Notes: generated from the letters alone by a model not told the origin. A stretch of DNA of 50,436 nucleotides from an uncultured Bacteroidales bacterium (GCA_964582565.1 CAZOSY010000001.1:1-50436), one strand, 5' to 3'; shown: positions 4,387 to 28,626, counted from the first letter of the stretch. Translations and numbers: made by a program.

Positions 4387-5478
4387 ATGAAAACCGAAGT
4401 TGCTCAAATTCTATTAAAAGAAAATTTTAGTAAAAAAGATATTATAAATCTTTTATCTACTACTGATACCACAGAAGCAAATAAGTTATATGAAAAAGCA
4501 TATAATATTAAAAAAAAATATGTTGGAAATAAAGTCTATTTACGTGGATTAGTAGAATTTTCAAATTTATGTAAAAAAAATTGTTATTACTGTGGTATAA
4601 GATCAGGGAATAAAAAATTACATAGATATAATATTCCTGATGCTCAAATAAAAAAATCAGTTGCTTATGCCCTGAAAAATAATTTTGGCTCTGTTATTTT
4701 TCAATCAGGCGAAAGAGATGACAGTTTATTTATTGAACAAGTGAATAATATTCTGAAAACTACAAAACGCATTACTAATAATAAAATTGGGATTACTTTA
4801 TCTTGTGGTGAACAAACTAAAAAAACTTATGAAAAATGGTATGATTCCGGTGCCCACAGATACCTTTTACGCATTGAAACATCAAGTAAAGATTTATATT
4901 ATAAAATACATCCTGAAAATAATATACATAATTTTGAAACCCGTTTAAAAGCATTAAAAAATCTCAAAAAAATTGGCTATCAAACAGGCACTGGTGTTAT
5001 GATAGGTTTACCATATCAAACAATTGAAAATTTGGCTGATGATTTGTTATTTTTTAAAAATATTGATATTGATATGGTTGGTATGGGACCATATATTGAA
5101 CATCCTGATACACCTTTATATAATTTAAGGCATTTACTTATGTCAAAAAAAGAACGTTTTAATTTAACATTGCGTATGATTGCAGTATTAAGAATTATGA
5201 TGAAAGATATTAACATAGCTTCTACAACAGCTCTACAATCTATTATGCCTGATAGCAGAAAAAAAGCATTAATATCCGGTGCAAATGTTATTATGCCTGA
5301 TTTAACACCTGTAAAATATATAAAAGATTATTTTTTATATGAAAACAAGCCATGTTTAGATGAAGGTAGTGATGAATATTTGTATTCTCTTGAAAAAAGT
5401 ATCAACCAAATTGGAGAAATAATCGGATATAAAAAATGGGGTGACCCAAAACATTATTTTGAGAGACAAAAAAAATAG
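4387..5478 (+). CDS. hydE: [FeFe]-hydrogenase maturase HydE (radical SAM, BioB-like)
   Basis: CX3CX2C motif (CKKNCYYC). 363 aa with a BioB/HydE-like TIM-barrel pattern. Clustered with hydG and hydF. Confidence 0.8.
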   Translation: MKTEVAQILLKENFSKKDIINLLSTTDTTEANKLYEKAYNIKKKYVGNKVYLRGLVEFSNLCKKNCYYCGIRSGNKKLHRYNIPDAQIKKSVAYALKNNFGSVIFQSGERDDSLFIEQVNNILKTTKRITNNKIGITLSCGEQTKKTYEKWYDSGAHRYLLRIETSSKDLYYKIHPENNIHNFETRLKALKNLKKIGYQTGTGVMIGLPYQTIENLADDLLFFKNIDIDMVGMGPYIEHPDTPLYNLRHLLMSKKERFNLTLRMIAVLRIMMKDINIASTTALQSIMPDSRKKALISGANVIMPDLTPVKYIKDYFLYENKPCLDEGSDEYLYSLEKSINQIGEIIGYKKWGDPKHYFERQKK

Positions 5479-5563: not shown

Positions 5564-6202
5564 ATGAAAAAACTTCCATCTAAAACAATTGAACGTTTAA
5601 CTCAATACAGAAGAATATTAATGCACTGCCTGGAAGGGAATTGTTTATCAAAAGGTATAAAAAATGTTTATTCGTATGAACTTGCATCCTTAATGCATAT
5701 AAACCCTTCTCATGTAAGAAGAGATTTAATGCTATTAGGATTATCAGGAAGTAAAAATAAAGGATATAATATTCAATATCTTACAGATTCAATAGGAAAT
5801 GTTTTAAATATTAATAAACAAAAGATATCTATTATTGGCATTGGTAATTTGGGAAGATTTTTTATCAATTATTTTAACTCATCAAAACAAACAAATTTTT
5901 TTATTGTTGCAGCATTTGATAATAATATTAAAAAAATTAATAAAACTATACTTGGAATACCTTGTTATGATATAAATGAATTATCAAAAATTATAGAAAA
6001 AGAAAATATATCTATTTGCATTTTAACAGTTCCTCCTGTAGCAGCCAAAAAAATTGCTGATATCTTGGTTAATACCAAAATTAAAGGTATATTAAATTAT
6101 ACAACTATTCCTCTTAAAATCCCGTCAAATATTCATCTTGAAGAATATGATATTATTACTTCTTTAGAAAAAACATCTTATTTTTTAAGTAATATGTTGT
6201 AA
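5564..6202 (+). CDS. rex: redox-sensing transcriptional repressor Rex
   Basis: N-terminal winged-helix region (TIERLTQYRRIL), Rossmann GxGxxG (GIGNLGRFF), 212 aa. Sits next to hydrogenase and redox genes. Confidence 0.85.
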   Translation: MKKLPSKTIERLTQYRRILMHCLEGNCLSKGIKNVYSYELASLMHINPSHVRRDLMLLGLSGSKNKGYNIQYLTDSIGNVLNINKQKISIIGIGNLGRFFINYFNSSKQTNFFIVAAFDNNIKKINKTILGIPCYDINELSKIIEKENISICILTVPPVAAKKIADILVNTKIKGILNYTTIPLKIPSNIHLEEYDIITSLEKTSYFLSNML

Positions 6203-7824: not shown

Positions 7825-8051
7825 CGTTTTTGTGTTGTTAATTCTTTAACAAAAAATTATTGTAAGCGTTCACAGAAACCTGTGCTGAAACTTGTGCTGA
7901 ATTCATTTCAGTATCCATGTCATACTGAACTTGTTTCAGGATTGTTTCAGTACGCTGAAATTGGAAAAGAACGAAAAGAGTTTACGAACTAGAGGTTGTT
8001 AGAAATTATTATTAACTTATTTAAACTTAAAATATTAAATATCAATTTGAT

Positions 8052-8573
8052 ATGATTGCTAAGACTAATGAAAGGAATAATAAAGTAAAAAATTTTTGTT
8101 ATTTATTTATTATTCTCATGCTTATATGGCTTGCTCTTACTTTGAGCTTTAAGAAAGAGGAATTAATTGTAGGGTTTATTGTAAGCATTATTCTTTCTTT
8201 CGCATTATATAAAAGTTATAAAAAAATAGGATTTCCAAAATTTAGTATCAAAAGAATTGTTTATCTTTTTATTTATATATTAGTACTTTTTAAAGAAATA
8301 ATTATAGCAAATATTGATGTGGCATATAGAATTATCCATCCAAAAATGCCAATAAAGCCAGGTATTGTAATTATCAAAACTGAATTAAAACAAGATTTGG
8401 CTAAAATGATCCTTGCAAATTCTATTACTTTAACTCCAGGAACATTTACATTAGATATTAATGATGATAGTCTTTTAATTCATTGGATGAATGTAAAGAC
8501 AGATAATACAGATGAAGCAACAAAAATCATAGGTAGAAGATTTGAGAAATATTTAAAAGTGATATTTAAATAA
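8052..8573 (+). CDS. MnhE/MrpE-like subunit (MbxA position)
   Basis: Two N-terminal TM helices followed by the LANSITLTPGT motif typical of MrpE. First gene of the co-directional cluster. Confidence 0.7.
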   Translation: MIAKTNERNNKVKNFCYLFIILMLIWLALTLSFKKEELIVGFIVSIILSFALYKSYKKIGFPKFSIKRIVYLFIYILVLFKEIIIANIDVAYRIIHPKMPIKPGIVIIKTELKQDLAKMILANSITLTPGTFTLDINDDSLLIHWMNVKTDNTDEATKIIGRRFEKYLKVIFK

Positions 8574-8612
8574 ATAATTAATAAGACATTTTAAAAAAGA
8601 TATTGTTTTCTG

Positions 8613-8879
8613 ATGGCAAAAAATTATAAACAATTAGCTGAAAGCATGAAAGCATTGGGACACCCTATACGTCTGCAGATTATAGCAGGTCTTGTTAAAA
8701 ATGAATGTAATGTTACACAGATTCAACAATCTATAGGTGTGCCTCAATCTACCATTTCTCAGCATTTGAGAATACTTAAAAATGCAGGAATAATAGAAGG
8801 AAGAAGAGAAAGAACAAATGTGTGTTATAAAGTGATTAATAATTGGATAAAAGAAGTAATTGAAAAGATAGATAAATAA
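8613..8879 (+). CDS. ArsR/SmtB-family winged-helix transcriptional regulator embedded in the operon
   Basis: LGHPIRLQIIAGL...VTQIQQSIGVPQSTISQHLRILKNAGIIEGRRE is the canonical ArsR HTH pattern. 88 aa. Confidence 0.85.
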   Translation: MAKNYKQLAESMKALGHPIRLQIIAGLVKNECNVTQIQQSIGVPQSTISQHLRILKNAGIIEGRRERTNVCYKVINNWIKEVIEKIDK

Positions 8880-8943
8880 TATTTTTTTAATATAAAATAT
8901 TGTATTATTTGAATATACAAATATTAAGAGATAAAAAAGAACC

Positions 8944-9198
8944 ATGAATACAATGATATTTTTTATAATTATTATAGGCATTAGTATTATTCTTTGTATT
9001 TTACGTATGATAAAAGGTCCTACTGCTGCTGACAGAGCAATAGCAGTAGATACAGTAACAACTATTATTGTTGCTCTATTAGTATTACTTGGTTTTGTTT
9101 TCAAAAGATATATTTATCTGGACGTTTCTTTAGTGTATTCAATAATATCATTTGTTGGTTTAATTGCTATTGCAAGATATTTAGAAAAAGGAATATAA
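8944..9198 (+). CDS. MnhF/MrpF-like subunit (MbxB position)
   Basis: 84 aa, 3 TM helices, GPTAADRAIAVDT motif. Confidence 0.75.
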   Translation: MNTMIFFIIIIGISIILCILRMIKGPTAADRAIAVDTVTTIIVALLVLLGFVFKRYIYLDVSLVYSIISFVGLIAIARYLEKGI

Positions 9199-9201
9199 TT
9201 T

Positions 9202-9567
9202 ATGAATATAAATATTGAATTAATTGGAATTATAGTTACAGGAATTGGAATTTTATTCCTTTTTTTGGGTGGCCTTGGAATTTATAGAATGCCTGATGTA
9301 TATAATAGAGTCCAGGCAGGAACAAAATGTACTACTTTAGGCGCTTTTTTAACTATTATAGGTGTAGGGATAATGCAGCCTGAATGGTTCTGGAAAACAC
9401 TCATCATAGCTTTATTTATACTTCTTTCTAATCCTATTTCAAGCCATGCTTTAGGAAGAGCTTCACTTAAAAGTGGTATTTCTTTGTGGCACAAAAGTGT
9501 TGTAAATAAAACTAAAGAATTTAAAGAATCTGAAAAAACTGAAAAGTTAAAAAAATCTAAAGAATAA
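9202..9567 (+). CDS. MnhG/MrpG-like subunit (MbxC position)
   Basis: LGGLGIYRMPDVYNRVQAGTKCTTLG motif, 3 TM helices, Lys/Glu-rich tail. Confidence 0.8.
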   Translation: MNINIELIGIIVTGIGILFLFLGGLGIYRMPDVYNRVQAGTKCTTLGAFLTIIGVGIMQPEWFWKTLIIALFILLSNPISSHALGRASLKSGISLWHKSVVNKTKEFKESEKTEKLKKSKE

Positions 9568-9569
9568 AT

Positions 9570-9809
9570 ATGATTATAATAGTTTCTATATTAATTTTTT
9601 TAATGCTTGTATCAGCAATTGCAGCAGTGATTTTTAAAGATTTATTGAGTGCAGTTATTGCTTCATGTGTTGTTAGTTTGATAGCAGCTGTTCTTTTTTA
9701 TTTCTTGCAGGCACCGGATGTAGCTATGGCAGAAGCTGCTATTGGAGCCGCATTGATAACTGCTATTTTCGTTATTGCTCTTAGAAGAACAAAAAGGTTT
9801 GAAGAATGA
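9570..9809 (+). CDS. small membrane subunit, MbhD/MbxD-like (DUF4040-type)
   Basis: 79 aa, 3 TM helices, QAPDVAMAEAAIGAAL motif. The stop overlaps the next start (ATGA). Confidence 0.65.
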   Translation: MIIIVSILIFLMLVSAIAAVIFKDLLSAVIASCVVSLIAAVLFYFLQAPDVAMAEAAIGAALITAIFVIALRRTKRFEE

Positions 9810-10492
9810 GAAAAATAATTAGTGCCATATTATTAATTGTTATTGCTGGAGGAATTACATTATCCATTATGGAAATTCCTTTTGGTGTAAACAAAGCAAA
9901 GGTAGGTGAGTATTATATAAATAAAGGAAGAGAAGAAACAGGGGCAACAAATATTGTTACTTCAGTAGTGTTGGATTACCGTGGCTTTGATACTCTTGGT
10001 GAAATAACTATACTTTTTTTAGCAGCTCTAAGCGTAGCAGCAATTCTAAGCTTAAGCAGAAAAAGAAATGATAAAAAAGAAAAAATAGAACCGGCAAGCT
10101 TAATATTATATACCGGATGTAGATTTTTATTCCCAATACTTCTTCTTGTGGGTTCATATATTTTTATTCATGGGCATCTTACTCCGGGAGGAGGTTTTCA
10201 GGGAGGAGCAATTATTGCCTCTGCATACCTTCTAATATATTTATCCTGCCCAGGAAAAAGAATAAATGAAAAATATAGTAAGCTAGTAGAATCATTGTCA
10301 GGATTAATTTTTATAGCATTGGGATTGATAGGGCTGGTAATAGGCGGAGAATTTCTTTTTAATTTTTTACCAAAAGGAACTCTTGGTACATTATTTAGTG
10401 CCGGCATTATCCCAATAATTTATATTGCTATTGGATTAAAAGTTGGCTCAGAATTAACCGGTATTATTGATAACTTAATAGAAGAAAGCTAA
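9806..10492 (+). CDS. MnhB/MrpB-domain subunit (MbxF position)
   Basis: TGATNIVTSVVLDYRGFDTLGE motif typical of MnhB. Polytopic. TAATG overlap with the next gene. Confidence 0.8.
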   Translation: MRKIISAILLIVIAGGITLSIMEIPFGVNKAKVGEYYINKGREETGATNIVTSVVLDYRGFDTLGEITILFLAALSVAAILSLSRKRNDKKEKIEPASLILYTGCRFLFPILLLVGSYIFIHGHLTPGGGFQGGAIIASAYLLIYLSCPGKRINEKYSKLVESLSGLIFIALGLIGLVIGGEFLFNFLPKGTLGTLFSAGIIPIIYIAIGLKVGSELTGIIDNLIEES

Positions 10493-10851
10493 TGAATTTT
10501 TTAAATGACTACATTTATTACATAGGAGCTTTTAGTCTGGTTTTTATAGGACTATATGTTTTGTTGGTTAAAAAAAATCTTATTAAGGTTATTATTGGTT
10601 TAAATATTCTTGATACAGGAGTATATTTATTTCTTGTAGCTATTGGTTATATTAATAATGGTACTGCTCCGATATTTTCAAAACCTGGATTAAACCCGAA
10701 AAATATGGTAGATCCCGTACCACAAGCATTAGTACTAACATCTATTGTGATAGGAGTGGCTATCTTATCATTAGCTCTTACATTAGCTATAAGATTATAT
10801 AAACATTATGGAACTCTTAATTTACGCAAAATAAAAGAACAAAGATGGTAA
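10492..10851 (+). CDS. MnhC/NuoK-like subunit (MbxG position)
   Basis: 119 aa, 3 TM helices. Its position between the MnhB-like and MnhD-like genes fits this assignment. Confidence 0.75.
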   Translation: MNFLNDYIYYIGAFSLVFIGLYVLLVKKNLIKVIIGLNILDTGVYLFLVAIGYINNGTAPIFSKPGLNPKNMVDPVPQALVLTSIVIGVAILSLALTLAIRLYKHYGTLNLRKIKEQRW

Positions 10852-12326
10852 ACCTAATATTAAATCCAGTACTTTTAATTGTTGTGCCTTTAGGTCTTGC
10901 CTTTTCTATTCCTTTGTTCGGACTTATTTCGAAAAAGATAGAAAAGTTTATCCCAACTGCAGCTCTTCTCTTTAATCTTATTGTTTCTGTAATACTCATT
11001 CCAAAAGTATTAATAAAACCTATAAATGTTTCTTTAGGTGGATTTTTGCCTCCCTTCTGTATTAATTTGGTAGCAGGACCTGTTGCAATTATATTTGTCG
11101 CACTTATTGCTTTAGTTGGTCTCTTGGTTTCAATTTATGCATGGGATTATATTAAAGAAGGTGCTAAAGAAAAATATCATATCATTTATCTTTTGCTTTT
11201 GATAGGAGCGACAGGTGTTGTTCTTACCGGAGATATATTTAATCTTTTTGTTTTTTTTGAGATTCTTTGTATTTCTTCTTATTCTCTTGTAGCTTATTAT
11301 AGCGATAAAGCCGGTACAGAATCTGCAATAAAATATCTTATACAAGGGTCTGTTGGTTCCGCTTTTATACTTATAGGTATTGGATTGCTTTATGGTCAGT
11401 TCGGAACACTTAATATGGCAGATATCGCAAATCAAATTCATTCTATTCATTCAATTTCTATCTTCCTACCTCTAGTTCTATTGATTACAGGATTTGGTAT
11501 AGAAGCAGCTATTTTCCCTTTAAACGCCTGGCTGCCTGATGCACATTCGTCTGCACCTTCATCAATAAGCGCTGTACTTTCAGGTATAGCTATTGAAGTC
11601 GGACTTTATGCTGTTGTCAGGATTGTATTTACCATTTTTGGCGCTTCAAGTTTATTAATGTTCTTTTTATACTTAGGCGTTTTAACATTATTAATAGGTG
11701 AAATATGTGCTTTCAGTCAGGATAATATTAAAAGAATGCTTGCATATTCCAGTATAGGACAAATTGGACTTATAGTGTTTGCCTTGTCAATTAATACGAC
11801 TTATGGAGTAGCAGGAGGTCTTTTTCAGTTGGTAAATCATACCCTGTCTAAAGCATTATTGTTTTTAGCTGTAGGTTATATGATTTACCGTAGTGGCTCT
11901 ATGAATATATCTTCTTTTGAAGGAATGGGTAAAAAAATGCCATATACTTCATTTGCTTTTACAATTGGAGCATTTTCACTTGTAGGATTACCGCCATTTA
12001 TTGGATTCCCAAGTAAATTTATGATTGTCAAGGCAGCTTTGTTTAAACACGAAATATTATTTACTGTGCTTATTGCACTTGTGCTTTTTGCTACAATAAT
12101 TGAAGGTGCTTATTTTTTCCGTGTAATACAAGTGATTTACTTTAAAGGGAAAAAGGATGACCTGAAGCGAGAAAGAGCACCTATTAGTGCATTAATACCT
12201 TTGTTTATTTTTGTTGGTTTGATAGTGTTTATAGGAGTTTATCCAAAAATTATGACAGACATATTAAACTCAGCAGCTTCAGAACTTTTAAATAGATTAG
12301 ATTATATAAAAAGTGTAATACAATGA
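10845..12326 (+). CDS. antiporter-like subunit, MnhD/NuoN family (MbxH position)
   Basis: Proton-conducting transporter motif FPLNAWLPDAHSSAPSSISAVLSG. About 14 TM helices. Confidence 0.85.
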   Translation: MVNLILNPVLLIVVPLGLAFSIPLFGLISKKIEKFIPTAALLFNLIVSVILIPKVLIKPINVSLGGFLPPFCINLVAGPVAIIFVALIALVGLLVSIYAWDYIKEGAKEKYHIIYLLLLIGATGVVLTGDIFNLFVFFEILCISSYSLVAYYSDKAGTESAIKYLIQGSVGSAFILIGIGLLYGQFGTLNMADIANQIHSIHSISIFLPLVLLITGFGIEAAIFPLNAWLPDAHSSAPSSISAVLSGIAIEVGLYAVVRIVFTIFGASSLLMFFLYLGVLTLLIGEICAFSQDNIKRMLAYSSIGQIGLIVFALSINTTYGVAGGLFQLVNHTLSKALLFLAVGYMIYRSGSMNISSFEGMGKKMPYTSFAFTIGAFSLVGLPPFIGFPSKFMIVKAALFKHEILFTVLIALVLFATIIEGAYFFRVIQVIYFKGKKDDLKRERAPISALIPLFIFVGLIVFIGVYPKIMTDILNSAASELLNRLDYIKSVIQ

Positions 12327-14179
12327 TTTTAGAAACTTTACTTATAATTGCTTTTGGGGGTGCATTAATAACGTATCTTTTAGGAAAAATATCTAAAAAA
12401 ACTAGAAATATTTCTGCTGTAGTTGTTTTATTGGCTTTAGTAGTTATTATTACTTTTCTTTATAATATTTCTTCCAAAGAAATTTTTTATATAGGATTTT
12501 TAAAAAATCTTTCACTCGTTTTAAGAATAAATACATTTTCATGGCTTTTTGCTATAACTATATCAGTTGTGAGTGCACTTTCAATTATTTTTTCTCTAAG
12601 CTATATAAAAGGTAAAGAAAGAACAAATTTCTATTATTTGATGATGATGCTTGTAGATGCAAGTATGATTGGTATTGTGCTTGCCGGTGATTTTGTTACT
12701 TTTTATATCTTCTGGGAGATAATGTCGTGGAGTGCATTTCTTTTGATAAGTTATAATAGAGGTGCTGCCCTCGCTGCAGGGATGAAATATATCATTATGT
12801 CTGTTATCGGTTCTATGGCTATGCTTATTGGAATATTATCCCTTTATGCAAATTATGGAACATTGAATATATCAGAACTTTCTGCTTTTATGACCTCTGC
12901 TTCTTCCGTATATATTTTGTTTATTTTGATAACTTTTGGAATTGGATTTGGAGTTAAGAGTGCAATAATACCTTTACATGCTTGGCTTCCGGATGCTCAT
13001 TCACAAGCACCTTCTCCATTTTCTGCAGTACTTTCGGGAATATTGATAAAAATGGGAATATATGGCTTTATCCTTATTTTTTATGTTATAGTCGGTTTAA
13101 AAAATTTCCTTGTCTTAGGTAGTAATTGGTCCAGCTTTCATTATATTCTCTGTTGGGTAGGTGTTATTACAATAGTAATTCCCAGTTTTATTGCTATACT
13201 ACAAGATGATGCAAAAAGACTTTTAGCTTGGTCCAGCATAGGACAGATTGGTTATATAATACTTGGTATCTCCTTTGGAACAAGTTTAGGTTTTGCTGGA
13301 GGCACATTCCATATCATCAATCATGCAATTTTTAAGGCACTCCTATTTTTAGCTGTTGGTGCAGTAGAATATAGAACAGGAACAAGAGATTTGAATTCAT
13401 TGGGAGGACTAATAAAAAAAATGCCTATAACTTTTTTAGTAGTTTTAATCGGTGCTTTTGGGCTTATTGGAGTTCCTTTGACAAATGGTTTTGTTTCAAA
13501 ATGGATGATTTATAAAACCTTGATACTTGAGGGTCATCCTTTCCTGGCCTTTTTTGCATTGTTGGGAACTTGGGCAGCTATACTTTACACTTATAAATTT
13601 ATTCATAATATTTTCTTAGGACAACTTCAGGAAAAACACGAAAATATAAAAAGAGCACCATTTAGCATGCAGCTTCCAATGATTATTCTTGCATTTGCAA
13701 TTATTCTCTTTGGCATACTACCAGGTATTCCACTTAAGATTATCAACACCATTGGAACTTCTTTTGGTTTTGAATCTTTAAATGTAAACATCTGGGGAAT
13801 TGCTTCTGATACGGGAACATTAAATACTGTAAATATTTTTATGGCTATCTTAGTAATAGGCGTAATTTTGTGGTTGATTTTTAAAGCAGCTCGCAAATCA
13901 GTAAAAATAAATCAGTATGATAACTATGCAGCTGGTTTTTCTATACCTAAAGAAAAATATAATTATACAGTTAATTTTTATAATCCTTTATATAGAATAA
14001 TTACACCTTATCTTAAAGATTTTATTGATGATTTTTATATGTGGATTTCACGAGAAATAAAAAAAATGTCTGTTTCGGTAAGACGCATATATTCAGGTGA
14101 TATAGGATATTATATTATGTACATAATGCTATTTTTGGCATTATTAATTTTTGTTCAAATAAAATGGAACTTATGGTAA
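12323..14179 (+). CDS. second antiporter-like subunit, NuoL/MnhA-D family (MbxH' position)
   Basis: IPLHAWLPDAHSQAPSPFSAVLSG motif. 618 aa with a C-terminal extension. ATGA overlap with the previous gene. Confidence 0.85.
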   Translation: MILETLLIIAFGGALITYLLGKISKKTRNISAVVVLLALVVIITFLYNISSKEIFYIGFLKNLSLVLRINTFSWLFAITISVVSALSIIFSLSYIKGKERTNFYYLMMMLVDASMIGIVLAGDFVTFYIFWEIMSWSAFLLISYNRGAALAAGMKYIIMSVIGSMAMLIGILSLYANYGTLNISELSAFMTSASSVYILFILITFGIGFGVKSAIIPLHAWLPDAHSQAPSPFSAVLSGILIKMGIYGFILIFYVIVGLKNFLVLGSNWSSFHYILCWVGVITIVIPSFIAILQDDAKRLLAWSSIGQIGYIILGISFGTSLGFAGGTFHIINHAIFKALLFLAVGAVEYRTGTRDLNSLGGLIKKMPITFLVVLIGAFGLIGVPLTNGFVSKWMIYKTLILEGHPFLAFFALLGTWAAILYTYKFIHNIFLGQLQEKHENIKRAPFSMQLPMIILAFAIILFGILPGIPLKIINTIGTSFGFESLNVNIWGIASDTGTLNTVNIFMAILVIGVILWLIFKAARKSVKINQYDNYAAGFSIPKEKYNYTVNFYNPLYRIITPYLKDFIDDFYMWISREIKKMSVSVRRIYSGDIGYYIMYIMLFLALLIFVQIKWNLW

Positions 14180-15066
14180 TTATGATATTTAAAATAATAT
14201 TGATGATATTTTTAGCATTTATCATTGGAATATTTTTCCTTGGATTAGCAAGAAAAATAATTGCAAGAATTCAATGGAGATATGGACCTCCTATTACTCA
14301 ACCAATTATTGATATAATTAAACTGTTTAATCAAGGAAGTATGAGTCATGGTGTTTTATTCAATTTTGGAATAATTCTTTCTCTAACTGGCTCTATCGTG
14401 TTAACATTGTTCCTTCCTATGGGGAAAATGTGCCCGTTAAGTAGCTCCGGGGGACTTCTTGTAATTATATATATTATGCTTTTAATACCCTTAGGGATGG
14501 CATTGAGTAGTGGTGAGGCAGCTAATCCAAATGCAAGTATTGGTATATCAAGAAAATTTATTTTGGCTCTGGGTTATGAGGTACCATTGTTGCTTATTTT
14601 TCTTGCAGTTATGACCCATTATGATACTATTTCAATAGTTAAAATAGTAAAAATACAATCCAATACAGGATGGTCTTTAACATCCTTACCCTTATTATTG
14701 TCCGGTATTGCTTATATATTAATACTTCCCGCAATATTGGGTGTAAGACCTTTTGATATTGTTAAAGCCCCACAGGAAATTTCATCAGGTCCAATGGTTG
14801 AATATGGAGGCAAATTTTTAGCTCTTGCTACCATACAACATGCTTTTAATGAATTTATTGCGCTCTCTCTTTTTGTAAATTTATTTTTAGGAGGTGCTGG
14901 TAACCCCGGATACTTCTTTTTGAAAATGTTAGTTGTATTTTTTATATACCAACTTGTGAATGCTGTATTTTTACGTTTCAGGATAGAACAGGCATTAAAA
15001 TATTTGTGGAAATGGCCAACACTGCTTGCATTAGCAGGTCTGATAATTGTTGTAATAACAAATTAA
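14164..15066 (+). CDS. NuoH/MbhM-like membrane subunit (MbxM position)
   Basis: RIQWRYGPP and EISSGPMVEYGG motifs of the NuoH/HyfC family. 8 TM helices. The true start may be an internal ATG a few codons downstream. Confidence 0.8.
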   Translation: MELMVIMIFKIILMIFLAFIIGIFFLGLARKIIARIQWRYGPPITQPIIDIIKLFNQGSMSHGVLFNFGIILSLTGSIVLTLFLPMGKMCPLSSSGGLLVIIYIMLLIPLGMALSSGEAANPNASIGISRKFILALGYEVPLLLIFLAVMTHYDTISIVKIVKIQSNTGWSLTSLPLLLSGIAYILILPAILGVRPFDIVKAPQEISSGPMVEYGGKFLALATIQHAFNEFIALSLFVNLFLGGAGNPGYFFLKMLVVFFIYQLVNAVFLRFRIEQALKYLWKWPTLLALAGLIIVVITN

Positions 15067-15074
15067 ATTAATAC

Positions 15075-15632
15075 ATGGATAGAAATAAACTTGGAAAATG
15101 GTTAAAGTCCCCGGCAAAAATGGGGCATAAATATTCGCTACATGTAGTATATTTTTGTACAGGTTGTGGAATTATGGAGGTGCCACCTTCTATCACAACA
15201 CGATGGGATGCAGAGAGATTTGGAATAATACCTGTTGCCAGTCCAAGACAAGCTAATTTATTTTTAATCACAGGATACGTATCTTTAAAAACATTAAAAG
15301 CAATTATACGCACTTATGAACAAATGCCGGAACCAAAATTTACCGTAGCACTTGGTTCTTGTCCTATAAATGGAGGAATGTATTGGGATTCTTATAATAC
15401 TATTAAACATTTAGATAAGTATATTCCTATTGACGGTTGGATTGCAGGATGTATGCCAAGACCTGAAGCTATATTCATTGGTGTAACTCATTTGTGGACT
15501 ATGATTGATAAAGAAATGGCAGATGGTTATAAAAAATACAGGAAAAATTATAAATATTACAGGGAAAATCAGGAACAAATTTATGGTAAACTTGAATGGC
15601 CACCATTATTTTCAAAGGAGGTTAAAGAATGA
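15075..15632 (+). CDS. NuoB/MbhJ-like [4Fe-4S] subunit (MbxJ position)
   Basis: Four-Cys cluster set: FCTGCGIMEV, GSCPINGG and GCMPRPEA. Confidence 0.85.
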   Translation: MDRNKLGKWLKSPAKMGHKYSLHVVYFCTGCGIMEVPPSITTRWDAERFGIIPVASPRQANLFLITGYVSLKTLKAIIRTYEQMPEPKFTVALGSCPINGGMYWDSYNTIKHLDKYIPIDGWIAGCMPRPEAIFIGVTHLWTMIDKEMADGYKKYRKNYKYYRENQEQIYGKLEWPPLFSKEVKE

Positions 15633-16153
15633 ATAAATCACTTAAAGAAAAACTTTTATCATCATTTAGTGATATTCAAATAGATATTACTGAAGATAAC
15701 AGAGTCGTTATTAATACAAAAAAAGATGATGTTATTTCTATTTTAACTTTTTTAAAAAATATAGGCTATAAACACTTAGCTCTTATTTCTTGCATTGACT
15801 GGATAGAAAAAAAAGAATTTGAGTTGGTCTATATTCTTTCTGCATATATGGATAATGATACTGAATATAAAGAGAAAGAAAAAACAAATATCTTAGTAAA
15901 AACAAAAATTTCCAGAGAAAAATCTGAATTTATCACAGTAATAAACGTTTTTACAAATGCTGAACCTTACGAACGTGAGCTGCATGAACTTTTTGGGATA
16001 TATTTTGAAGGGCATCCAAGACTAACACCGCTTTTTTTGGAACTGAAGTACAAAACACCTCCTTTTAGAAAAAATTTTGATATAAGAAAATATGTAACAG
16101 ACGTATTTGATAATATTCCTTTTGTGGAAGATAGAAAAGAAAAAGAAAAATAA
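15629..16153 (+). CDS. NuoC/MbhK-like subunit (MbxK position)
   Basis: ERELHELFGIYFEGHP motif. ATGA overlap with the upstream gene. Confidence 0.8.
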   Translation: MNKSLKEKLLSSFSDIQIDITEDNRVVINTKKDDVISILTFLKNIGYKHLALISCIDWIEKKEFELVYILSAYMDNDTEYKEKEKTNILVKTKISREKSEFITVINVFTNAEPYERELHELFGIYFEGHPRLTPLFLELKYKTPPFRKNFDIRKYVTDVFDNIPFVEDRKEKEK

Positions 16154-17250
16154 TGAGAGAAATAGAACTATATTTTGGTCCACAGCACCTTGGAATGGTT
16201 GGTAACTTTAGCATTACATTAAATGTTGAAGGTGACCGTATCTTAAAAGCTGCTGCTAATCCCGGGTTCCTACATCGCGGATTTGAAAAACTTATGGAAC
16301 AAAGAACATGGATACAAAATTTTCCATTAGTATGCAGGATAAATGTTGTGGAACCTGATCCTATGGAATTAATGTATGCTATGGGTGTTGAGAAATTAGC
16401 TAATATTAAAATTCCTGAAAGAGCAAAGTATATTAGAAGTATTTATCTTGAGCTTGCTAGAATTGCTTCTCATTTGTTTGGTTTATGGGCATATTCCAAT
16501 ATGTTAGGTTTTGATACTGTTGCACAATGGGCAATGTATCACCGCGATCTTGTACTGGACCTTTTTGAAGAACTTACCGGTGGTAGAGTTTACCATATAT
16601 ATATTTGGCCAGGTGGTGTAAGACGCGATTTTCCTGAAGGATTTAAAGATAAAATAGTTAAAACATTACATACTATTGGTGGTTGTGTGCCTGATTATGA
16701 TAATACATTTTTTAACAATCGAACATTTTACAAAAGATCCAAAAATATAGGAATAGTAACACGGAAAGAAGCTGAAGAAATGGGAGGAGTTGGGCAGGTT
16801 ATGAGAGCAACAGGTATGAAATATGATATTAGGAAAATTGAACCTTATGCTGCTTATGATAAAGTGGATTGGGAAATACCTACTAGAAAAGATGGTGATG
16901 CGTTTTCACGCATCTGGATAGTACGTGATGAAATGATTGAAAGCGTTCATATGATATTTAAGCTGCTCGATAAAATGCCCGAAGGAGAGGTTTTTAATAA
17001 AATGCCTAATCCTTTCAAATGGAATATCCCAAAAGGAGAGGCTTATGTAAGATGTGAATCTTCAAGAGGAGAATTAGGTCTTTATATGGTTAGTAATGGC
17101 AAAGATAAACCGTATCGTGTGCATTTTAGAACACCTTCTTATTCGCACGGATTAACAATATTGGAAAAGGCATTAGTAAATGAAAGTGTTGCTGATGTAG
17201 GTAATATAATGATAAGTTTATATGTAACGGCTCCTGAAATAGACAGATAA
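16153..17250 (+). CDS. NuoD/MbxL-like catalytic-type subunit without Ni-Fe cysteine ligands
   Basis: GPQHLG, FLHRGFEKL and CESSRGELGLYM motifs of the NuoD / [NiFe] group-4 large-subunit fold. The RxCGxC box reads CRINVVEP. The C-terminus reads VTAPEIDR and has no Cys. Confidence 0.85.
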   Translation: MREIELYFGPQHLGMVGNFSITLNVEGDRILKAAANPGFLHRGFEKLMEQRTWIQNFPLVCRINVVEPDPMELMYAMGVEKLANIKIPERAKYIRSIYLELARIASHLFGLWAYSNMLGFDTVAQWAMYHRDLVLDLFEELTGGRVYHIYIWPGGVRRDFPEGFKDKIVKTLHTIGGCVPDYDNTFFNNRTFYKRSKNIGIVTRKEAEEMGGVGQVMRATGMKYDIRKIEPYAAYDKVDWEIPTRKDGDAFSRIWIVRDEMIESVHMIFKLLDKMPEGEVFNKMPNPFKWNIPKGEAYVRCESSRGELGLYMVSNGKDKPYRVHFRTPSYSHGLTILEKALVNESVADVGNIMISLYVTAPEIDR

Positions 17251-17266
17251 AATAGAGGATAAAAAA

Positions 17267-19123
17267 ATGATTAAAACAAGTATTTTAACTCCATTTAAGG
17301 CTATAAGGTTTCTTTTTAAAAAACCAAAGACATTAAGATTCCCTTTTGAACAGAAGGATACGGCATTGAGATACAGAGGTTTTCATCTTAATGATTGGGA
17401 TAAGTGTACTGGCTGCGGTAATTGTGCTGATATTTGTCCTAATGAGGCTATTAAAATGGTTGAGATACCAGAAATAACACCTAATCCTAAAGAAGGTATG
17501 AAGAATGAAAGACCTGAAATTGACTATGGTAGATGTTGTTTTTGCGGCTTATGTGTTGATATTTGTCCTCCCGGTTCTCTCCGTCTTTCAAGAGATTATC
17601 TACATATTCATTTTGATACAAAAAGTTTTGTTTTTATTCCAAAAGATGAAAAAACAGACAAAGAAAATTTTCTTGATAAAAAAGATTATTCTATATTTAA
17701 AGCAAGTTTGTCACATAGAAAGAAGGATTACGAGGGATTTTCTTCTGACCTTAAATATTCATTATTTGAACCAGAACGTATAATTATGCCTCAGGTAAAA
17801 CCCGAAGAACGTAAACTCTCCTTTATAGAACAAGTTATAGGTTACAGTAAAGAAGAGGCAAAAATGGAGGCCTCAAGATGTCTGGAATGTAAATTATGTG
17901 AAGAGGCCTGCCCTGCACACCTTAAAATTTCTGATTACATCAAGGCAATTTATGAAGACAAACCAGACGAATCATTGAAAAAGATTTATGAGGACAACCC
18001 AATTCCATCAATCTGTGGAAGAATATGTATGGCTCATTGTGAAGATGCCTGTTCAATCGGGAAAAGAGGCGATTCTCTTGCTATAAGATGGATAAAAAGA
18101 TATGCTGCTGATACTATTCAGGATTTTAAATCCACTTTAGAGCTCAAGCCTGCTAAGTCTAACGGTAAAAAAGTAGCAGTTGTCGGTGCCGGACCAGGTG
18201 GTTTATCAGTATCTTATTTCTTAAGACTAAAGGGCTATGAAGTTACAGTATTTGATTCTTTATCAGGAGGAGGTGGAGCCATAAGGATAGGACCGCCAAT
18301 TTATAGATTACCAATAGAGGCAATAGATAAAGATGTGAATTATATAAGCTCTTTGGGAGTTGAGTTTAAATTTAATACAACCATTGGGAAAGATATTTTA
18401 TTTGAAGATATTTTAAAAAATTATGAAGTAGTTTATCTCGGAATAGGTACTTTTGTGAGTCGGTCGACGAGAGTGAAAAATGCGGAAAAATGTTTGTTGG
18501 CACTAAATTTCTTAAAAGAGAATAAAATAGGTGAAGGAGTTAAAGTGGGTAAAGAAATTATAGTAATAGGTGGAGGTAATGTTGCTATGGATACTGCCAG
18601 AGAAGCACTTCGTCTGCAATATATCCAATATCCTAAAGAAGAAGCTATTACAAAGACAGTATCCCTGGAAGATTGGGATATAATGCCAGCAACAGATGAA
18701 GAAATTAAAGAGGCAAAAGAAGAAGGAATACAATTCAATCCTGCATGGGGACCAAAAGAAGTTGTCCTTGATGAAAAAGGAAATATTAAAGGATTGTTAT
18801 GCAAAAAGGTTAAATCAGTATTTGATGAACAAAAAAGATTTTCTCCTACATTTTTTGAAGAAAAAACAATATTGCTGAAAGGTGATATGATTATTGAAGC
18901 TATCGGTCAAGGATCTGACTTTTCATTCATGCCGGAAGAATTATTTAAGAAACTTGAATTTACACCAAGAAGAAAAGTAAAAGTTGATGATAATGGTATG
19001 ACTTCTATACCAAAAATTTTTGCAGGCGGCGATATTGTAAATATTAATTTAGATGCTGTTACTGCAATTGCTGATGCAAAAGTTGCTTCACAAGGAATAG
19101 ATAATTTTTTGTCTTCTATTTAA
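17267..19123 (+). CDS. fusion protein: NuoI/MbxN-like 2x[4Fe-4S] ferredoxin domain + GltD/SudA/NfnB-like NAD(P)H-dependent FAD oxidoreductase
   Basis: N-terminal part: CTGCGNCADICP and CCFCGLCVDICP. C-terminal part: RCLECKLCEEACP, ICGRICMAHCEDAC, VAVVGAGPGGLS, IIVIGGGNVAMD and FAGGDIV. Confidence 0.85.
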   Translation: MIKTSILTPFKAIRFLFKKPKTLRFPFEQKDTALRYRGFHLNDWDKCTGCGNCADICPNEAIKMVEIPEITPNPKEGMKNERPEIDYGRCCFCGLCVDICPPGSLRLSRDYLHIHFDTKSFVFIPKDEKTDKENFLDKKDYSIFKASLSHRKKDYEGFSSDLKYSLFEPERIIMPQVKPEERKLSFIEQVIGYSKEEAKMEASRCLECKLCEEACPAHLKISDYIKAIYEDKPDESLKKIYEDNPIPSICGRICMAHCEDACSIGKRGDSLAIRWIKRYAADTIQDFKSTLELKPAKSNGKKVAVVGAGPGGLSVSYFLRLKGYEVTVFDSLSGGGGAIRIGPPIYRLPIEAIDKDVNYISSLGVEFKFNTTIGKDILFEDILKNYEVVYLGIGTFVSRSTRVKNAEKCLLALNFLKENKIGEGVKVGKEIIVIGGGNVAMDTAREALRLQYIQYPKEEAITKTVSLEDWDIMPATDEEIKEAKEEGIQFNPAWGPKEVVLDEKGNIKGLLCKKVKSVFDEQKRFSPTFFEEKTILLKGDMIIEAIGQGSDFSFMPEELFKKLEFTPRRKVKVDDNGMTSIPKIFAGGDIVNINLDAVTAIADAKVASQGIDNFLSSI

Positions 19124-23196: not shown

Positions 23197-26172
23197 CTAT
23201 TTTTTAGGTTTTAGTATTACTCCTTTATTTTTTCTACCATCAATCATTACTTTAAGAGGAGTATTAAATCTTATATGTTTTATAAATTCACTTTCATAAA
23301 AAGCTTTACGTTTTGACAGATATTCCAAGTCATAATATCCATCATTGATAAAAGGATTTATAGTAAAATAGCCAACTTTAAAAGATGTAAGATTTTGAAA
23401 AAAGTGAGTTCCCTGACTTGGTTCTATTCTATAATTTTCTAATCCTGCTTCAACAATAGCTCTTGCTTCTGAAATTTGATACCATTTTACAGGAATACCT
23501 AAGAAAGGGTCTTCGGATCCCCATCTTCCGGGTCCTACTAATATATAATTTTTTTTGTCATTAATAAATTTTTCGTTAATTTTTTCTATTTCTAATGTAA
23601 GAGCATTATTATTAGAAGCTTTAAAAGTTTCAGGTTTGATATAAATAAAATCATAGGTATCGTCAATAATTCCATTTCCTAATGCCAAATTTGAATATAT
23701 AATAGTTTTTTTTAAAGAAATTTTTTCAATATCAAAGTTAGTTTTTTCATTGTTAAACACTATTGGTCGTATTTGTAAGAAATTAAATATTTTCGGTTTA
23801 TTTTTTTCAGTATCCAAATTAACAGCAAATTCAATTTCTACAGGAGTATTCATTTCTTTTTGTCCAACTTTTAATAATGTTTGCAAGATGTCAGATAGAG
23901 GAAATGTATTATAATTTAAAATATTTGAAAAAGTTATGATTTTTTTGCCTTGATAATTCGTTCCATCCCTTATAACATTATTTTGAAAGTCATAAGTTGA
24001 TGAAACATATTTTATAGAATCATCTTTTTCAGTTTCTTTAATTTTTAATTTTAATATATTAACATCATCATTAGTAGAAGGGATACAACTATCAGCAAAC
24101 AGGTCTAAGGCATAAAATATTTTTTGAGTATCTTTAATAGCCATTTCAGTAGAAGAAAGTTGTAATATTTTTTTAGGATATTTAGGAGAAAATCTTAATG
24201 TTTTGCCACCGTCAACGACATATTTTCCTAATCCAAAAGCAATGTTTGCTATACCATCTTCGTGTTTTTCGGGATAAATAGGATAAAAATTAATTGACCT
24301 TGCAACGCCGGATATCGTTGGGTAAAATTTATTATTATATCTTTTTCCGCAAACTTCCTGAATTATTATACCCATTTTTTCATGATCAATTACATTTGAT
24401 GTTGCAAGCATATACGATTTACTACTTTTATAGAATACGGATGCATAAACACTTTTTATTGCATTAGTTAATAATTTGATCATCAATTTTTTATTGGTTT
24501 CAATTTTAGGTATCATATAAGTAGAATATATTCCTGCAAAAGGTTGATACTGAGAATCTTCTAAAAGACTTGAAGATCTTACAGCAATAGGTCTCTTAAA
24601 AACAGATAGTATAGCAAATAAATCTTTATATATTCTATCAGGCAATTTAGCTTTAACAAAATATTTTAGAATTTCTTCATCGCTTAAATCTGATAATCCT
24701 ATTTCATACAGATTATTTTTTTTCATAAATTCATCAAAGATATCAGTACAAAGCACAATAGTTCTTGGTATAGTTATAAACAAATCGTCATATTTATCAA
24801 AAATTCTATTTCTTTTTATAAAAGAGTCAACAAAAGCAAGACCTCTTGCCTTGCCTCCTATTGAGCCATCTCCAATACGTGAAAAAATTGAGTATTTATC
24901 AAAACTATTTTTATCAAATTTGGCTATAATTCCATGTCCTTTATTTTGTCTAAACTTGGATATTATATCAAATATATAATCTCTTACTTCGCCAATATTA
25001 TTAAAATCTTTACTTTTTAAAGGTTCTAACATTTTTGCAATAGGGAATAATGCACGTGCATTTAGCCATCTTGAAAAATCATTTTTATTAATGTGATGTC
25101 TAATAGATTCGTCAGGTATTGTTAAAATTTTTTGTTGCAAGGATTGTAAGTCAGAAACTCTGTCTATTTCTTTGGATGTGTTTGGATCTATAAAAACAAA
25201 ATCTCCAAAAACAAAATATTTATAAAAATAATTTTCTAGTTCAATAGATAATATTTTAGAATTTTTATTAATAAATCCTATATTAAAAGAATCTGCGATT
25301 TTCTTGTTTTCAATATCTAATGACTGTAATATAAAAGGTATATATTTATTATCATTCTTGATTTCTTTGTATAATTTAATTCCTGCCTGACTATCTGTTT
25401 CACCATTTTTTTTATACTTAATATCTGATATAATACCTAATATATTTTCCTTATATTTTTCATACAAAGTAATAGCTTCTTCATAATTAGTAGCAAAAAG
25501 AATTTTTGGACGTCCTCTTTTATGTAGAGATTTTTGATGCTCATTAAGTCCTTCTGTCATAAAGGACTGTGATTGTTTAAATAAAATTTTATAAATGTTA
25601 GGTAGATAACTTGAATAATATCGTAAGGAATTTTCAACTAATAAAATAGCTTGTACTCCTATATTATAAATATCATTTTCTGCATTCATTTTGTCTTCAA
25701 TTAGCTTAATAATAGCCAATAAAATATCTGGATTGCCCAACCAACAAAAAGTATAATCAATATAATTTGTATTTTTAATATCTAATTCTATACTAACTTT
25801 TCTGGAAAGATGCGTTAAAACAACAATTGGTATTTCTGTATATTTTTCTTTTATTTTTTTTGACAGATTAAAAATATCTATATCTCCTGTGCTTGGTATA
25901 GCTATTACTAAACTAATATTTTCCTGTTCTAAAATTTTAAATGCTTTTTGTCTTGTATTTGCCTGAATAAAAACTGGAGGATACCTAAGATTTAGAGATG
26001 CATATTCATTAAATATTTGTTCATCAATACGGCCATCTTCCTCAATCAAAAAAATATCATAATTACTACAAATAAGTAATACTTTATAAATTCTTTTTTG
26101 CATTAATTTATTAAAGGATGTATCGTTAAAATAATATTTTTGTGATTCTACTTTTACTGTTTTTTTTATCAT
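23197..26172 (-). CDS. pseudo-receiver + receiver (REC) + PEP/pyruvate-binding (PPDK_N ATP-grasp) protein, paralog 1
   Basis: REC-like region: ILLVENS..IISDIKY..ILQSLD. PPDK_N motifs: GGKARGLAF, AVRSSSLLEDS..FAGIYST, PVEIEFAV..LQIRPI. C-terminal conserved region: GPGRWGSEDPFLGIPV..GTHFFQNLTS. Confidence 0.8.
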   Translation of the reverse strand: MIKKTVKVESQKYYFNDTSFNKLMQKRIYKVLLICSNYDIFLIEEDGRIDEQIFNEYASLNLRYPPVFIQANTRQKAFKILEQENISLVIAIPSTGDIDIFNLSKKIKEKYTEIPIVVLTHLSRKVSIELDIKNTNYIDYTFCWLGNPDILLAIIKLIEDKMNAENDIYNIGVQAILLVENSLRYYSSYLPNIYKILFKQSQSFMTEGLNEHQKSLHKRGRPKILFATNYEEAITLYEKYKENILGIISDIKYKKNGETDSQAGIKLYKEIKNDNKYIPFILQSLDIENKKIADSFNIGFINKNSKILSIELENYFYKYFVFGDFVFIDPNTSKEIDRVSDLQSLQQKILTIPDESIRHHINKNDFSRWLNARALFPIAKMLEPLKSKDFNNIGEVRDYIFDIISKFRQNKGHGIIAKFDKNSFDKYSIFSRIGDGSIGGKARGLAFVDSFIKRNRIFDKYDDLFITIPRTIVLCTDIFDEFMKKNNLYEIGLSDLSDEEILKYFVKAKLPDRIYKDLFAILSVFKRPIAVRSSSLLEDSQYQPFAGIYSTYMIPKIETNKKLMIKLLTNAIKSVYASVFYKSSKSYMLATSNVIDHEKMGIIIQEVCGKRYNNKFYPTISGVARSINFYPIYPEKHEDGIANIAFGLGKYVVDGGKTLRFSPKYPKKILQLSSTEMAIKDTQKIFYALDLFADSCIPSTNDDVNILKLKIKETEKDDSIKYVSSTYDFQNNVIRDGTNYQGKKIITFSNILNYNTFPLSDILQTLLKVGQKEMNTPVEIEFAVNLDTEKNKPKIFNFLQIRPIVFNNEKTNFDIEKISLKKTIIYSNLALGNGIIDDTYDFIYIKPETFKASNNNALTLEIEKINEKFINDKKNYILVGPGRWGSEDPFLGIPVKWYQISEARAIVEAGLENYRIEPSQGTHFFQNLTSFKVGYFTINPFINDGYYDLEYLSKRKAFYESEFIKHIRFNTPLKVMIDGRKNKGVILKPKK

Positions 26173-28233: not shown

Positions 28234-28626
28234 TTTTTAAAATTATTACAAACAAAAGTTTTTTTTTATCAATTAACAGTAATTACTGATATTCTTTTTT
28301 TACCGTCTATTTTAATAGTTAATGGTTTATTAAAACGTATATGTTTAAAATATTTAGTTCTATTGATTAATTTCTGTTTATTCAAAATATCAAAATTAAT
28401 ATAATTATCAACAGATAAAGAGTTAATAGAAAAATAACATATATTCATTGAAGTTAGATTATGAAAGAAATGAGAGCCTAAAGAGGCATCAAGTGGAAAA
28501 TCTTTTAAACTCATTTCAACAATAACTTTAGCATTAGATATTTGGGGCCAAGTAACAGGTATCCCAATAAATCTATCACGAGTTCCCCATCTGCCTGGTC
28601 CAATCAGAACATATTTTTTATTCTTT
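28234..28626. repeat. direct repeat copy 2 (3' UTR + last ~118 codons of the 989-aa gene)
   Basis: Matches 19130-19521. Confidence 0.9.

Follow-up and report, generated by a model that had tools for sequence, protein, structure and literature searches.

A ferredoxin-type subunit fused to an NfnB/GltD-type flavoprotein closes an Mrp-Mbx operon

The DNA analyzed here is a stretch of 50,436 nucleotides from an uncultured Bacteroidales bacterium (GCA_964582565.1, CAZOSY010000001.1:1-50436; the whole stretch is hereafter called the window), and our subject is the gene at positions 17267-19123 on the plus strand, which closes a co-directional, tightly packed Mrp-Mbx operon with, according to Pfam, 13 structural genes (8052-19123). 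The gene is a single open reading frame (ORF) with an ATG start and zero internal stops and encodes a protein of 618 amino acids. An initial annotation had described this product as subunit N of an Mbx-like complex fused to a GltD/SudA/NfnB-type NAD(P)H flavoprotein, and translation placed all of the motifs it had quoted within the one ORF, namely two ferredoxin-type cysteine motifs near the N terminus (C47/C50/C53/C57 and C90/C93/C96/C100), the cysteines of a GltD-type Fe-S region (C205/C208/C211/C215 and C250/C254/C258/C262), and VAVVGAGPGGLS, IIVIGGGNVAMD and FAGGDIV. Domain assignment with Pfam and NCBIfam confirmed the fused architecture and fixed its boundaries: Pfam detected a Fer4 dicluster at residues 43-103, Fer4_20 at residues 185-285 (1.3e-26) and Pyr_redox_2 at residues 301-602 (9.4e-21), and the NCBIfam NuoI models matched residues 2-134 (1.9e-33). 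On the plus strand, residues 1-114 (17267-17608) thus form an MbsN/NuoI-type domain with two [4Fe-4S] motifs, as assigned from 6u8y_N and the NuoI NCBIfam models; residues 115-184 (17609-17818) form a linker with many invariant columns within the clade of at least 75% identity; residues 185-285 (17819-18121) form a GltD/NfnB-type domain with two [4Fe-4S] motifs, the eight cysteines of which are kept (Fer4_20); and residues 301-602 (18167-19072) form the FAD and NAD(P) Rossmann folds (Pyr_redox_2 and Foldseek). The linker, which had been put at ~90 amino acids, is present but is ~70 residues long.

When compared with solved structures, the fusion's N-terminal part was closest to subunit N of P. 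furiosus MBS (6u8y_N, 1.4e-28, ahead of Nqo9 at 1.9e-13 and MbhN at 3.3e-12), which aligned to residues 3-114 (7e-29). The earlier assignment of the N terminus to the NuoI/MbhN/MbxN type can therefore be narrowed to MbsN-like, with MbhN and Nqo9 distant; the gene also occupies the gene-order slot of these subunits, as had been claimed, with NuoH-, NuoB-, NuoC- and NuoD-like genes preceding it (Pfam). The best solved sequence match of the C-terminal part was the NfnI large subunit (5jca_L, 1.7e-75, 36% identity), in agreement with a GltD/SudA/NfnB-type module. An AlphaFold model of the fusion based on a diverse alignment had a predicted local distance difference test score (pLDDT) of 87.7 and a predicted template modeling score (pTM) of 0.83, with values below 50 at residues 1-4 and 135-151 only; a shallow alignment of homologues with at least 75% identity had given a pLDDT of 48.9, and the diverse alignment was used instead. 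In a Foldseek search of the Protein Data Bank (PDB) with this model, NfnB chains came top with target-normalized TM-scores of 0.86-0.88 (0.87 for 5jca_L, with a root mean square deviation of 2.8), followed by NfnABC, StnABC, GltD and DPD, and none of the listed PDB chains spans both domains. The model suggests that the fusion is one compact two-domain protein with defined domain packing, and we infer that the Fe-S chain would be continuous across the two domains. Further, the full architecture is covered by a catalogued profile, PRK13984 (NF010590, "putative oxidoreductase", 611 positions), to which residues 2-616 of the fusion aligned end to end (profile positions 7-607) with a score of 702.8 bits, under the model cut-off of 946 bits.

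The fusion is conserved across phyla and also occurs as a split pair

A scan of one genome per species gave 165 confirmed stretches encoding a relative of the fusion, and the locus counts given here and below refer to the best 80 of these (L001-L080). Each of the 80 loci has the same single ORF, with 65-92% identity to the window fusion, and the metagenome-assembled genomes bear labels (as given) of Aerophobetes, Cloacimonadota, Zixibacteria, Planctomycetota, Bacteroidales, Marinimicrobia, KSB1, Sumerlaeota, Atribacterota, WOR-3, Thermotogae and others. This cross-phylum identity is unusually high and points to strong constraint, horizontal transfer of the whole operon, or both. All 16 cluster cysteines are kept (79/79 loci), a NuoD-like gene lies directly upstream of the fusion in 75 of 77 loci with a median gap of 27 nt, and the complete colinear operon is present in 39 of the 41 loci having at least 9 kb of upstream sequence. 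At the protein level, an identical fusion protein is encoded on seven contigs, and more than 120 protein clusters match at full length with at least 75% identity. We note that the Aerophobus profundus single-cell genome (L013) encodes a fusion, an MbxJ and an MbxL that are 79%, 81% and 77% identical, respectively, to those of the window.

Residues 1-140 of the fusion were also searched against 1.84 billion cluster representatives. Approximately half of the closest MbxN-like representatives are 580-765 amino acids long, i.e. of fused length, and all 10 of the long representatives tested match PRK13984 end to end and thus have the full architecture. One fused protein (P0128) comes from the cultured Thermosipho melanesiensis, for which complete genomes exist; it is ~46% identical to the window fusion, scores 1194.7 bits on PRK13984 and so lies above the cut-off, and its gene ends the same 13-gene operon. 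The window locus and this Thermotogae MBX operon share an identical gene order with the fused N-GltD gene last and rex adjoining, the end-to-end profile match and the S/C-L-E type of dinucleotide site discussed below. They differ in that the window protein scores below the cut-off and belongs to a separate, much larger and mostly uncultured clade, and in that a rubrerythrin-like gene follows the fusion in Thermosipho (L082 11853-12356), whereas none follows it in the window. We conclude that the MbxN-GltD fusion is widespread, is already catalogued as PRK13984 and is ordinary for bacterial mbx operons, the window gene being a further member.

The initial annotation had called for a search for other fusions or for adjacent split genes, and both exist. 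In the split form (L081 5743-7622), a gene for a 176-amino acid MbxN is followed, after 27 nt, by a gene for a 440-amino acid GltD-like protein, the two being colinear with residues 6-144 and 174-615 of the window fusion, with the break at approximately residue 174. The split pair follows NuoH/B/C/D-like genes on a short contig, with no Mrp genes directly upstream. The existence of fused and split forms of the same pair shows the flavoprotein to be a bona fide subunit, and we conclude from these comparisons that it is a genuine, obligatory partner of the predicted complex.

The operon encodes a complex of the MBS type

All genes of the operon lie on the plus strand. Its Mrp-type part encodes MbxA (an MnhE-type subunit; 8052-8573, Pfam MNHE 8e-42), MbxB (MrpF; 8944-9198, MrpF_PhaF 4e-18), MbxC (MnhG; 9202-9567, PhaG_MnhG_YufB 8e-25), MbxD (MbhD; 9570-9809, MbhD 2.9e-21), MbxE/F (with MbhE and MnhB domains; 9806-10492), MbxG (MnhC/NuoK-like; 10492-10851, Oxidored_q2 2.3e-26) and two antiporter-like subunits, MbxH (493 amino acids; 10845-12326, Proton_antipo_M 3.4e-61) and MbxH' (618 amino acids; 12323-14179, Proton_antipo_M). 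These are followed by the membrane anchor MbxM (NuoH-like; 14164-15066), MbxJ (NuoB-like, with an MBS-type proximal-cluster motif; 15075-15632), MbxK (NuoC-like; 15629-16153, Complex1_30kDa 1.3e-28) and MbxL (NuoD-like; 16153-17250), and an 88-amino acid ArsR/SmtB-type helix-turn-helix regulator is encoded within the operon between MbxA and MbxB (8613-8879, HTH_5 1.3e-13). Pfam detected no homologue of NuoE, NuoF or NuoG among the genes of the operon, which agrees with the earlier description of an NAD(P)H-linked, complex-I-like machine built without NuoEFG. Likewise, neither the operon nor its flanks encode an NfnA/SudB- or GltB-type partner, and the operon has no second acceptor branch of another kind.

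When the subunits were compared with solved structures, the best match of MbxL was 6u8y_L (1.6e-101; Nqo4, 5.7e-68; MbhL, 3.3e-42), that of MbxJ was 6u8y_J (6.3e-66; NDH-K, 2e-35), that of MbxH' was 6u8y_X, i.e. MbsH', which likewise has 618 amino acids (1.3e-88; MbhH, 5.3e-71), and that of MbxM was 6u8y_M (2.5e-62; MbhM, 3.4e-23). Every subunit compared (N, L, J, H' and M) is by this measure nearest to MBS (6U8Y), not to MBH or complex I. Residues 17-172 of MbxJ align without gaps to residues 14-169 of MbsJ, FCTGCG, GSCP and GCMP are kept, and equivalents of MbsJ C25, C28, C93 and C123 are present, as is the short C-x-x-C loop that has been tied to the three-cysteine, catalytically open proximal [4Fe-4S] cluster of MBS (PMC7684303). 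This proximal-cluster pattern recurs in 54 of 58 loci. MbxL lacks the NiFe ligands altogether, and a hydrogenase was rejected on that account; the positions of the vestigial cysteines C85 and C385 of MbsL are occupied by N64 and T359. The quinone-site residues H38 and Y87 of Nqo4 (2fug_4) correspond to V16 and V65 of MbxL, with valine in nearly all loci, and a quinone-reducing variant of complex I was rejected because this His/Tyr pair is absent. We conclude that the operon, as judged from these residues, encodes an MBS/Mbx-type complex rather than a hydrogenase or a quinone reductase. A separate feature of MbxL is Cys61 ("LVCRINV", 16333-16335), which precedes the MbsL C85 position by three residues and is conserved in 65 of 65 loci.

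The window system thus shares with P. furiosus MBS the layout of 13 genes (Mrp plus NuoH/B/C/D/I-like), the presence of both H and H' (MBH has one antiporter-like subunit), the gap-free short C-x-x-C loop of MbsJ and the absence of a NiFe site and of the quinone-site His/Tyr pair. It is set apart by its subunit N, which bears an NfnB/GltD-type flavoprotein of ~450 residues, whereas MbsN is free-standing, has 208 amino acids and receives its electrons from ferredoxin, and the C-terminal tail of MbsN (121-208) cannot be aligned with the window linker. Further, MbsL keeps two vestigial NiFe cysteines, which are dispensable for MBS catalysis (PMC7684303), and MbxL has neither. The window system is bacterial, its host is probably no hyperthermophile, and it has Rex and ArsR-type regulators rather than SurR.

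The dinucleotide-binding site falls into two classes

The flavoprotein module shares Fer4_20 with two [4Fe-4S] motifs and the FAD and NAD(P) folds with NfnB, SudA and GltD (5JCA_L; T. maritima NfnB, 4YLF_B; GltD). It differs from them in its context, which is that of a membrane complex, in having a complex-I-type ferredoxin subunit at its N terminus and no NfnA/SudB or GltB partner, and in the sequence that follows strand two of the NAD(P) fold. At this position NfnB, SudA and GltD have Y-R-R, and alignment places S-L-E-D there in the window fusion, preceded by an insertion of 7-8 residues relative to NfnB/GltD; S466-L467-E468 (18662-18670, plus strand) is the predicted cofactor-specificity site. 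The arginines of Y-R-R conventionally bind the 2'-phosphate of NADPH, and an acidic residue at the end of the second Rossmann strand is the classical mark of NAD preference.

The (S/C)-L-E type is present in 80 of 80 loci and also in the Thermosipho protein, whereas Y-R-R is retained in other fused clades, i.e. a Hydrothermae/WOR-3 cluster and four others (P0131, P0135, P0140, P0143 and P0149), and in the split form (L081 6300-7622). Because E468 replaces an arginine, the Rossmann-fold rule predicts that the window clade uses NADH and that the Y-R-R clades use NADPH. That other fused clades keep Y-R-R further argues that cofactor choice is selected for at this site, and the two classes suggest that the same complex exists in an NADH-type and an NADPH-type version. 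The division into S-L-E and Y-R-R cofactor sites is absent from the accessible literature and is added by the present analysis.

A rex gene and Rex-box-like palindromes accompany the operon

Rex de-represses NADH-consuming functions once the NADH/NAD+ ratio rises. In the window, a gene for this redox-sensing (NADH/NAD+) transcriptional repressor (5564-6202, plus strand; Pfam Put_DNA-bind_N and CoA_binding) lies upstream of the operon, and an exact-pattern scan found a perfect Rex-box-like palindrome, TTGTTAATTCTTTAACAA, in the promoter region of the operon (7835-7852). The exact palindrome TTGTTAA-N4-TTAACAA has one match in the 50-kb window, ~200 nt ahead of the first operon gene. By eye, a predicted Bacteroidota-type promoter element is seen just before the palindrome.

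Among the other loci, the gene immediately upstream of the first operon gene is a rex homologue in 14 of the 24 with enough sequence there, and that immediately downstream of the fusion is one in 4 more, giving 18 adjacent cases in total. A box resembling TTGTGAA-N4-TTCACAA (two mismatches at most) is present 24-64 nt before rex in 10 of the 13 rex-first loci, as compared with ~0.15 expected from a background of 0.039 boxes per kb. Loci with an association of rex or a Rex box include L029, L035, L052, L054, L056-L058, L060, L067 and L071, together with L082 (1105-1396); in Thermosipho, rex and mbxA are divergently oriented, and ATGTGAAGTAAGTCACAA lies between them. The predicted Rex box and the rex gene would place the window operon in the Rex regulon. 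Across the family the link between Rex and mbx appears to be frequent but not universal, and it is drawn mainly from gene adjacency and from the boxes in other lineages. Our literature search found no paper connecting Rex to mbx operons; the association is not stated in the accessible literature and is added here.

The ArsR-type protein encoded within the operon has two cysteines, C32 in "NEC(N/S)V" and C71 in "(V/I)CY", and both are kept in 9 of 9 homologues of at least 45% identity, the count covering homologues beside the mbx-type operon. Their genes are found inside the operon, upstream of it or a short way downstream (L001, L002, L004, L005, L016, L022, L038, L045 and L070), and the protein may regulate the complex by sensing thiols or persulfides. 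With regard to the 5' leader that follows the Rex-like box (7870-7955), we note that it is richer in G+C than its flanks and contains three to four palindromes of the type CTGAA-N4-6-TTCAG as well as the direct repeats GAAAC(C/T)TGTGCT and TTGTTTCAG, each present twice. The repeats are absent from the closest relative (L002), and a search of the leader against Rfam gave no credible match.

Neighboring genes and the rest of the window

The genes that follow the fusion in other loci are heterogeneous, their identity having been taken from the Pfam match of one representative per group. A CBS-pair protein of 128-138 amino acids follows in at least seven loci (L026, L032, L039, L042, L043, L052 and L056), an NSR/CoADR-like pyridine-nucleotide-disulfide oxidoreductase in L050 and L073, and an AsrA-like Fer4_22 protein in L021, L034 and L054. 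These downstream genes, Rex included, are weak hints towards a sulfur acceptor.

In the window, the [FeFe]-hydrogenase maturase genes hydG (502-2031), hydF (2907-4112) and hydE (4387-5478) are found just ahead of rex, and since these are encoded, the organism presumably also makes an [FeFe] hydrogenase. The G+C content of the window is ~28%, and several of its proteins have type-IX-secretion sorting tails. Together, hydGFE, rex, the sorting tails and the low G+C content fit an anaerobic, fermentative member of the Bacteroidota/FCB. Elsewhere in the window, an odd cluster contains two paralogues of ~990 amino acids with a PPDK_N (PEP-utilizing, ATP-binding) domain (23197-26172 and 28269-31238, minus strand), the second of which has an additional response-regulator receiver domain; the two flank genes for a metallophosphoesterase and a nucleotidyltransferase.

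Discussion

We propose, at roughly even confidence, that the operon encodes a Rex-controlled, NADH-oxidizing, ion-translocating complex of the MBS type that probably reduces sulfane sulfur. The fused NfnB/GltD-type module would be the built-in pyridine-nucleotide dehydrogenase of this complex. NADH, predicted over NADPH, would give a hydride to FAD, from which single electrons would pass first via the pair of [4Fe-4S] clusters in the GltD-like domain, then via the pair in the MbsN-like domain, and arrive at the MbsJ-like subunit's proximal cluster. There, in a chamber formed by J with the MbsL- and MbsM-like subunits, a non-quinone acceptor would be reduced, and this chemistry would drive the translocation of H+ or Na+ by H, H' and the Mrp module. 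The most likely acceptor would be sulfane sulfur (polysulfide), as in P. furiosus MBS. Rex would tie expression to the NADH/NAD+ ratio, and the complex would give a fermentative anaerobe a respiratory sink for NADH. NADH is proposed as the donor on three grounds, namely the NAD-type site, the predicted Rex control and the strictly conserved MBS-type catalytic loop, which would idle if electrons ran just from ferredoxin to the distal-arm flavin. Homology to MBS makes sulfane sulfur the acceptor by default. The mbx operon of T. maritima is induced by S0 (PMC9431562). With regard to energetics, 42 kJ per 2e- are available to the ferredoxin-driven MBS and 12 kJ per 2e- to MBH (PMC8165549), and we estimate that replacing ferredoxin with NADH, which is ~160 mV more positive, would leave ~11 kJ per 2e-, near the span of MBH.

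Several points weigh against this proposal. The step from NADH to polysulfide is weakly exergonic, both vestigial MbsL cysteines are missing here and the surroundings of the active site differ from those of P. furiosus MBS. The rule by which a glutamate in place of an arginine forecasts cofactor preference is approximate at best. As for Rex, the closest relative (L002) is without an upstream Rex box, and an adjacent rex is present in just 18 of 80 loci. Further, the searchable literature reports no biochemical test of any family member, the only published reading of the gltD-like subunit takes NAD(P)+ as the acceptor and not NADH as the donor (PMC4758237), and the T. maritima model assumes ferredoxin as the donor, without mention of the flavoprotein domain (PMC9431562).

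Of the two options raised by the initial annotation, an NAD(P)H:acceptor pump and an Rnf-like ferredoxin:NAD(P)+ oxidoreductase, the second was the function first proposed for archaeal Mbx. Electrons would here flow from ferredoxin through the Fe-S chain and the flavoprotein to NAD(P)+, releasing ~30 kJ per 2e- for ion export, a larger span than that from NADH to polysulfide. The closest solved relatives, NfnB and SudA, do use ferredoxin and NADP(H), and the gltD-like subunit has been read as a site of NAD(P)+ reduction (PMC4758237). However, coupling in all solved complex-I-type machines needs chemistry at the proximal cluster and chamber, near the membrane arm (PMC7684303), and a flow from ferredoxin to FAD would remain in the distal peripheral arm and bypass the coupling site, although the MbsJ catalytic-loop motif is still strictly conserved, in 54 of 58 loci. 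Moreover, Rex normally de-represses consumers of NADH rather than producers, and T. maritima, in which mbx is induced by S0, already has Rnf (PMC9431562). We therefore consider this direction unlikely; the evidence (Rex, the NAD-type site and the intact catalytic subunit) leans towards NADH as the donor.

A second alternative would keep ferredoxin as the main donor of an MBS with two inputs and make the flavoprotein a side port through which NAD(P)H electrons enter or leave for redox balancing. Every subunit tested is close to the ferredoxin-dependent MBS, a ferredoxin donor is used in the T. maritima model (PMC9431562), and the split forms and unfused MbxN-like proteins indicate that the module can be separate and is perhaps dissociable. 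Against this, the flavoprotein in our model packs compactly with the MbsN-like domain (pTM 0.83), probably covering the dock for ferredoxin at the distal cluster, and all 80 loci of the window clade have kept the fusion; we regard a side port as rather unlikely. Flavin-based bifurcation or confurcation, in which FAD would split the electron pair of NAD(P)H between the Fe-S chain and a second partner, is brought to mind by the closest structural relatives, the bifurcating subunits found in NfnI, NfnABC and StnABC, but the operon is without an NfnA/SudB-type small subunit or a second acceptor branch and GltD and DPD share the fold without bifurcating, which makes it very improbable. Finally, the split arrangement of L081 might invite the view that adjacent MbxN and GltD-like genes were joined by misassembly or sequencing error, which we rejected as having a negligible chance of being true, given that the uninterrupted ORF recurs in 80 independent loci from genomes and in over 120 protein clusters, that seven contigs encode the identical protein and that the complete genomes of T. 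melanesiensis contain the fusion.

The fusion itself, which the initial annotation had suspected to be novel, is not: PRK13984 spans the full architecture, and a gltD-like subunit in Thermotoga mbx-like operons was described by Degli Esposti in 2015 (PMC4758237). The Staphylothermus genome paper has a SudA-like gene beside an mbh/mbx-type cluster (PMC2678158). The fusion is unmentioned in PMC8165549, PMC6405883, PMC6349859 and PMC6338057, and a literature search on MbxN and on Mbx in candidate phyla gave nothing relevant. The premise that Mbx/MBS complexes are without a pyridine-nucleotide module is true of the archaeal prototype, not of bacterial mbx-like operons such as that of Thermosipho. 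The 2013 review by Schut et al. reportedly also lists NAD(P)H-oxidizing modules on Mrp-Mbh/Mbx clusters.

With complex I (NuoA-N), the proposed NADH-oxidizing complex would share the path from NADH through flavin and Fe-S clusters to a NuoI-type subunit, the NuoB cluster and a chamber coupled to antiporter-like pumps. It differs in that its NADH input is non-homologous (a GltD-type FAD protein as opposed to NuoE/F/G with FMN), in that its membrane arm is of the Mrp type with extra subunits and in that it has no quinone-binding His38/Tyr87. We consider it possible, though somewhat short of an even chance, that the clade represents a "complex I" that works without quinone, is controlled by Rex and has a non-homologous input specific to NADH, its sister clades (Y-R-R) using NADPH. 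The acceptor would then be sulfane sulfur or another soluble one, and the family would present a second, independent evolutionary attachment of an NADH dehydrogenase to the complex-I core.

In published metabolic models, e.g. that of T. maritima, the complex depends on ferredoxin and its flavoprotein domain is left out of account, and the Rex link and the NADH/NADPH-type division offer concrete, testable predictions for the function of the family. If NADH oxidation and ion pumping are true, models of these organisms as plain fermenters would overlook a respiratory NADH sink tied to the sulfur cycle, and, in many uncultured phyla of sediments and the subsurface, fermentative anaerobes would conserve energy directly from the re-oxidation of NADH.

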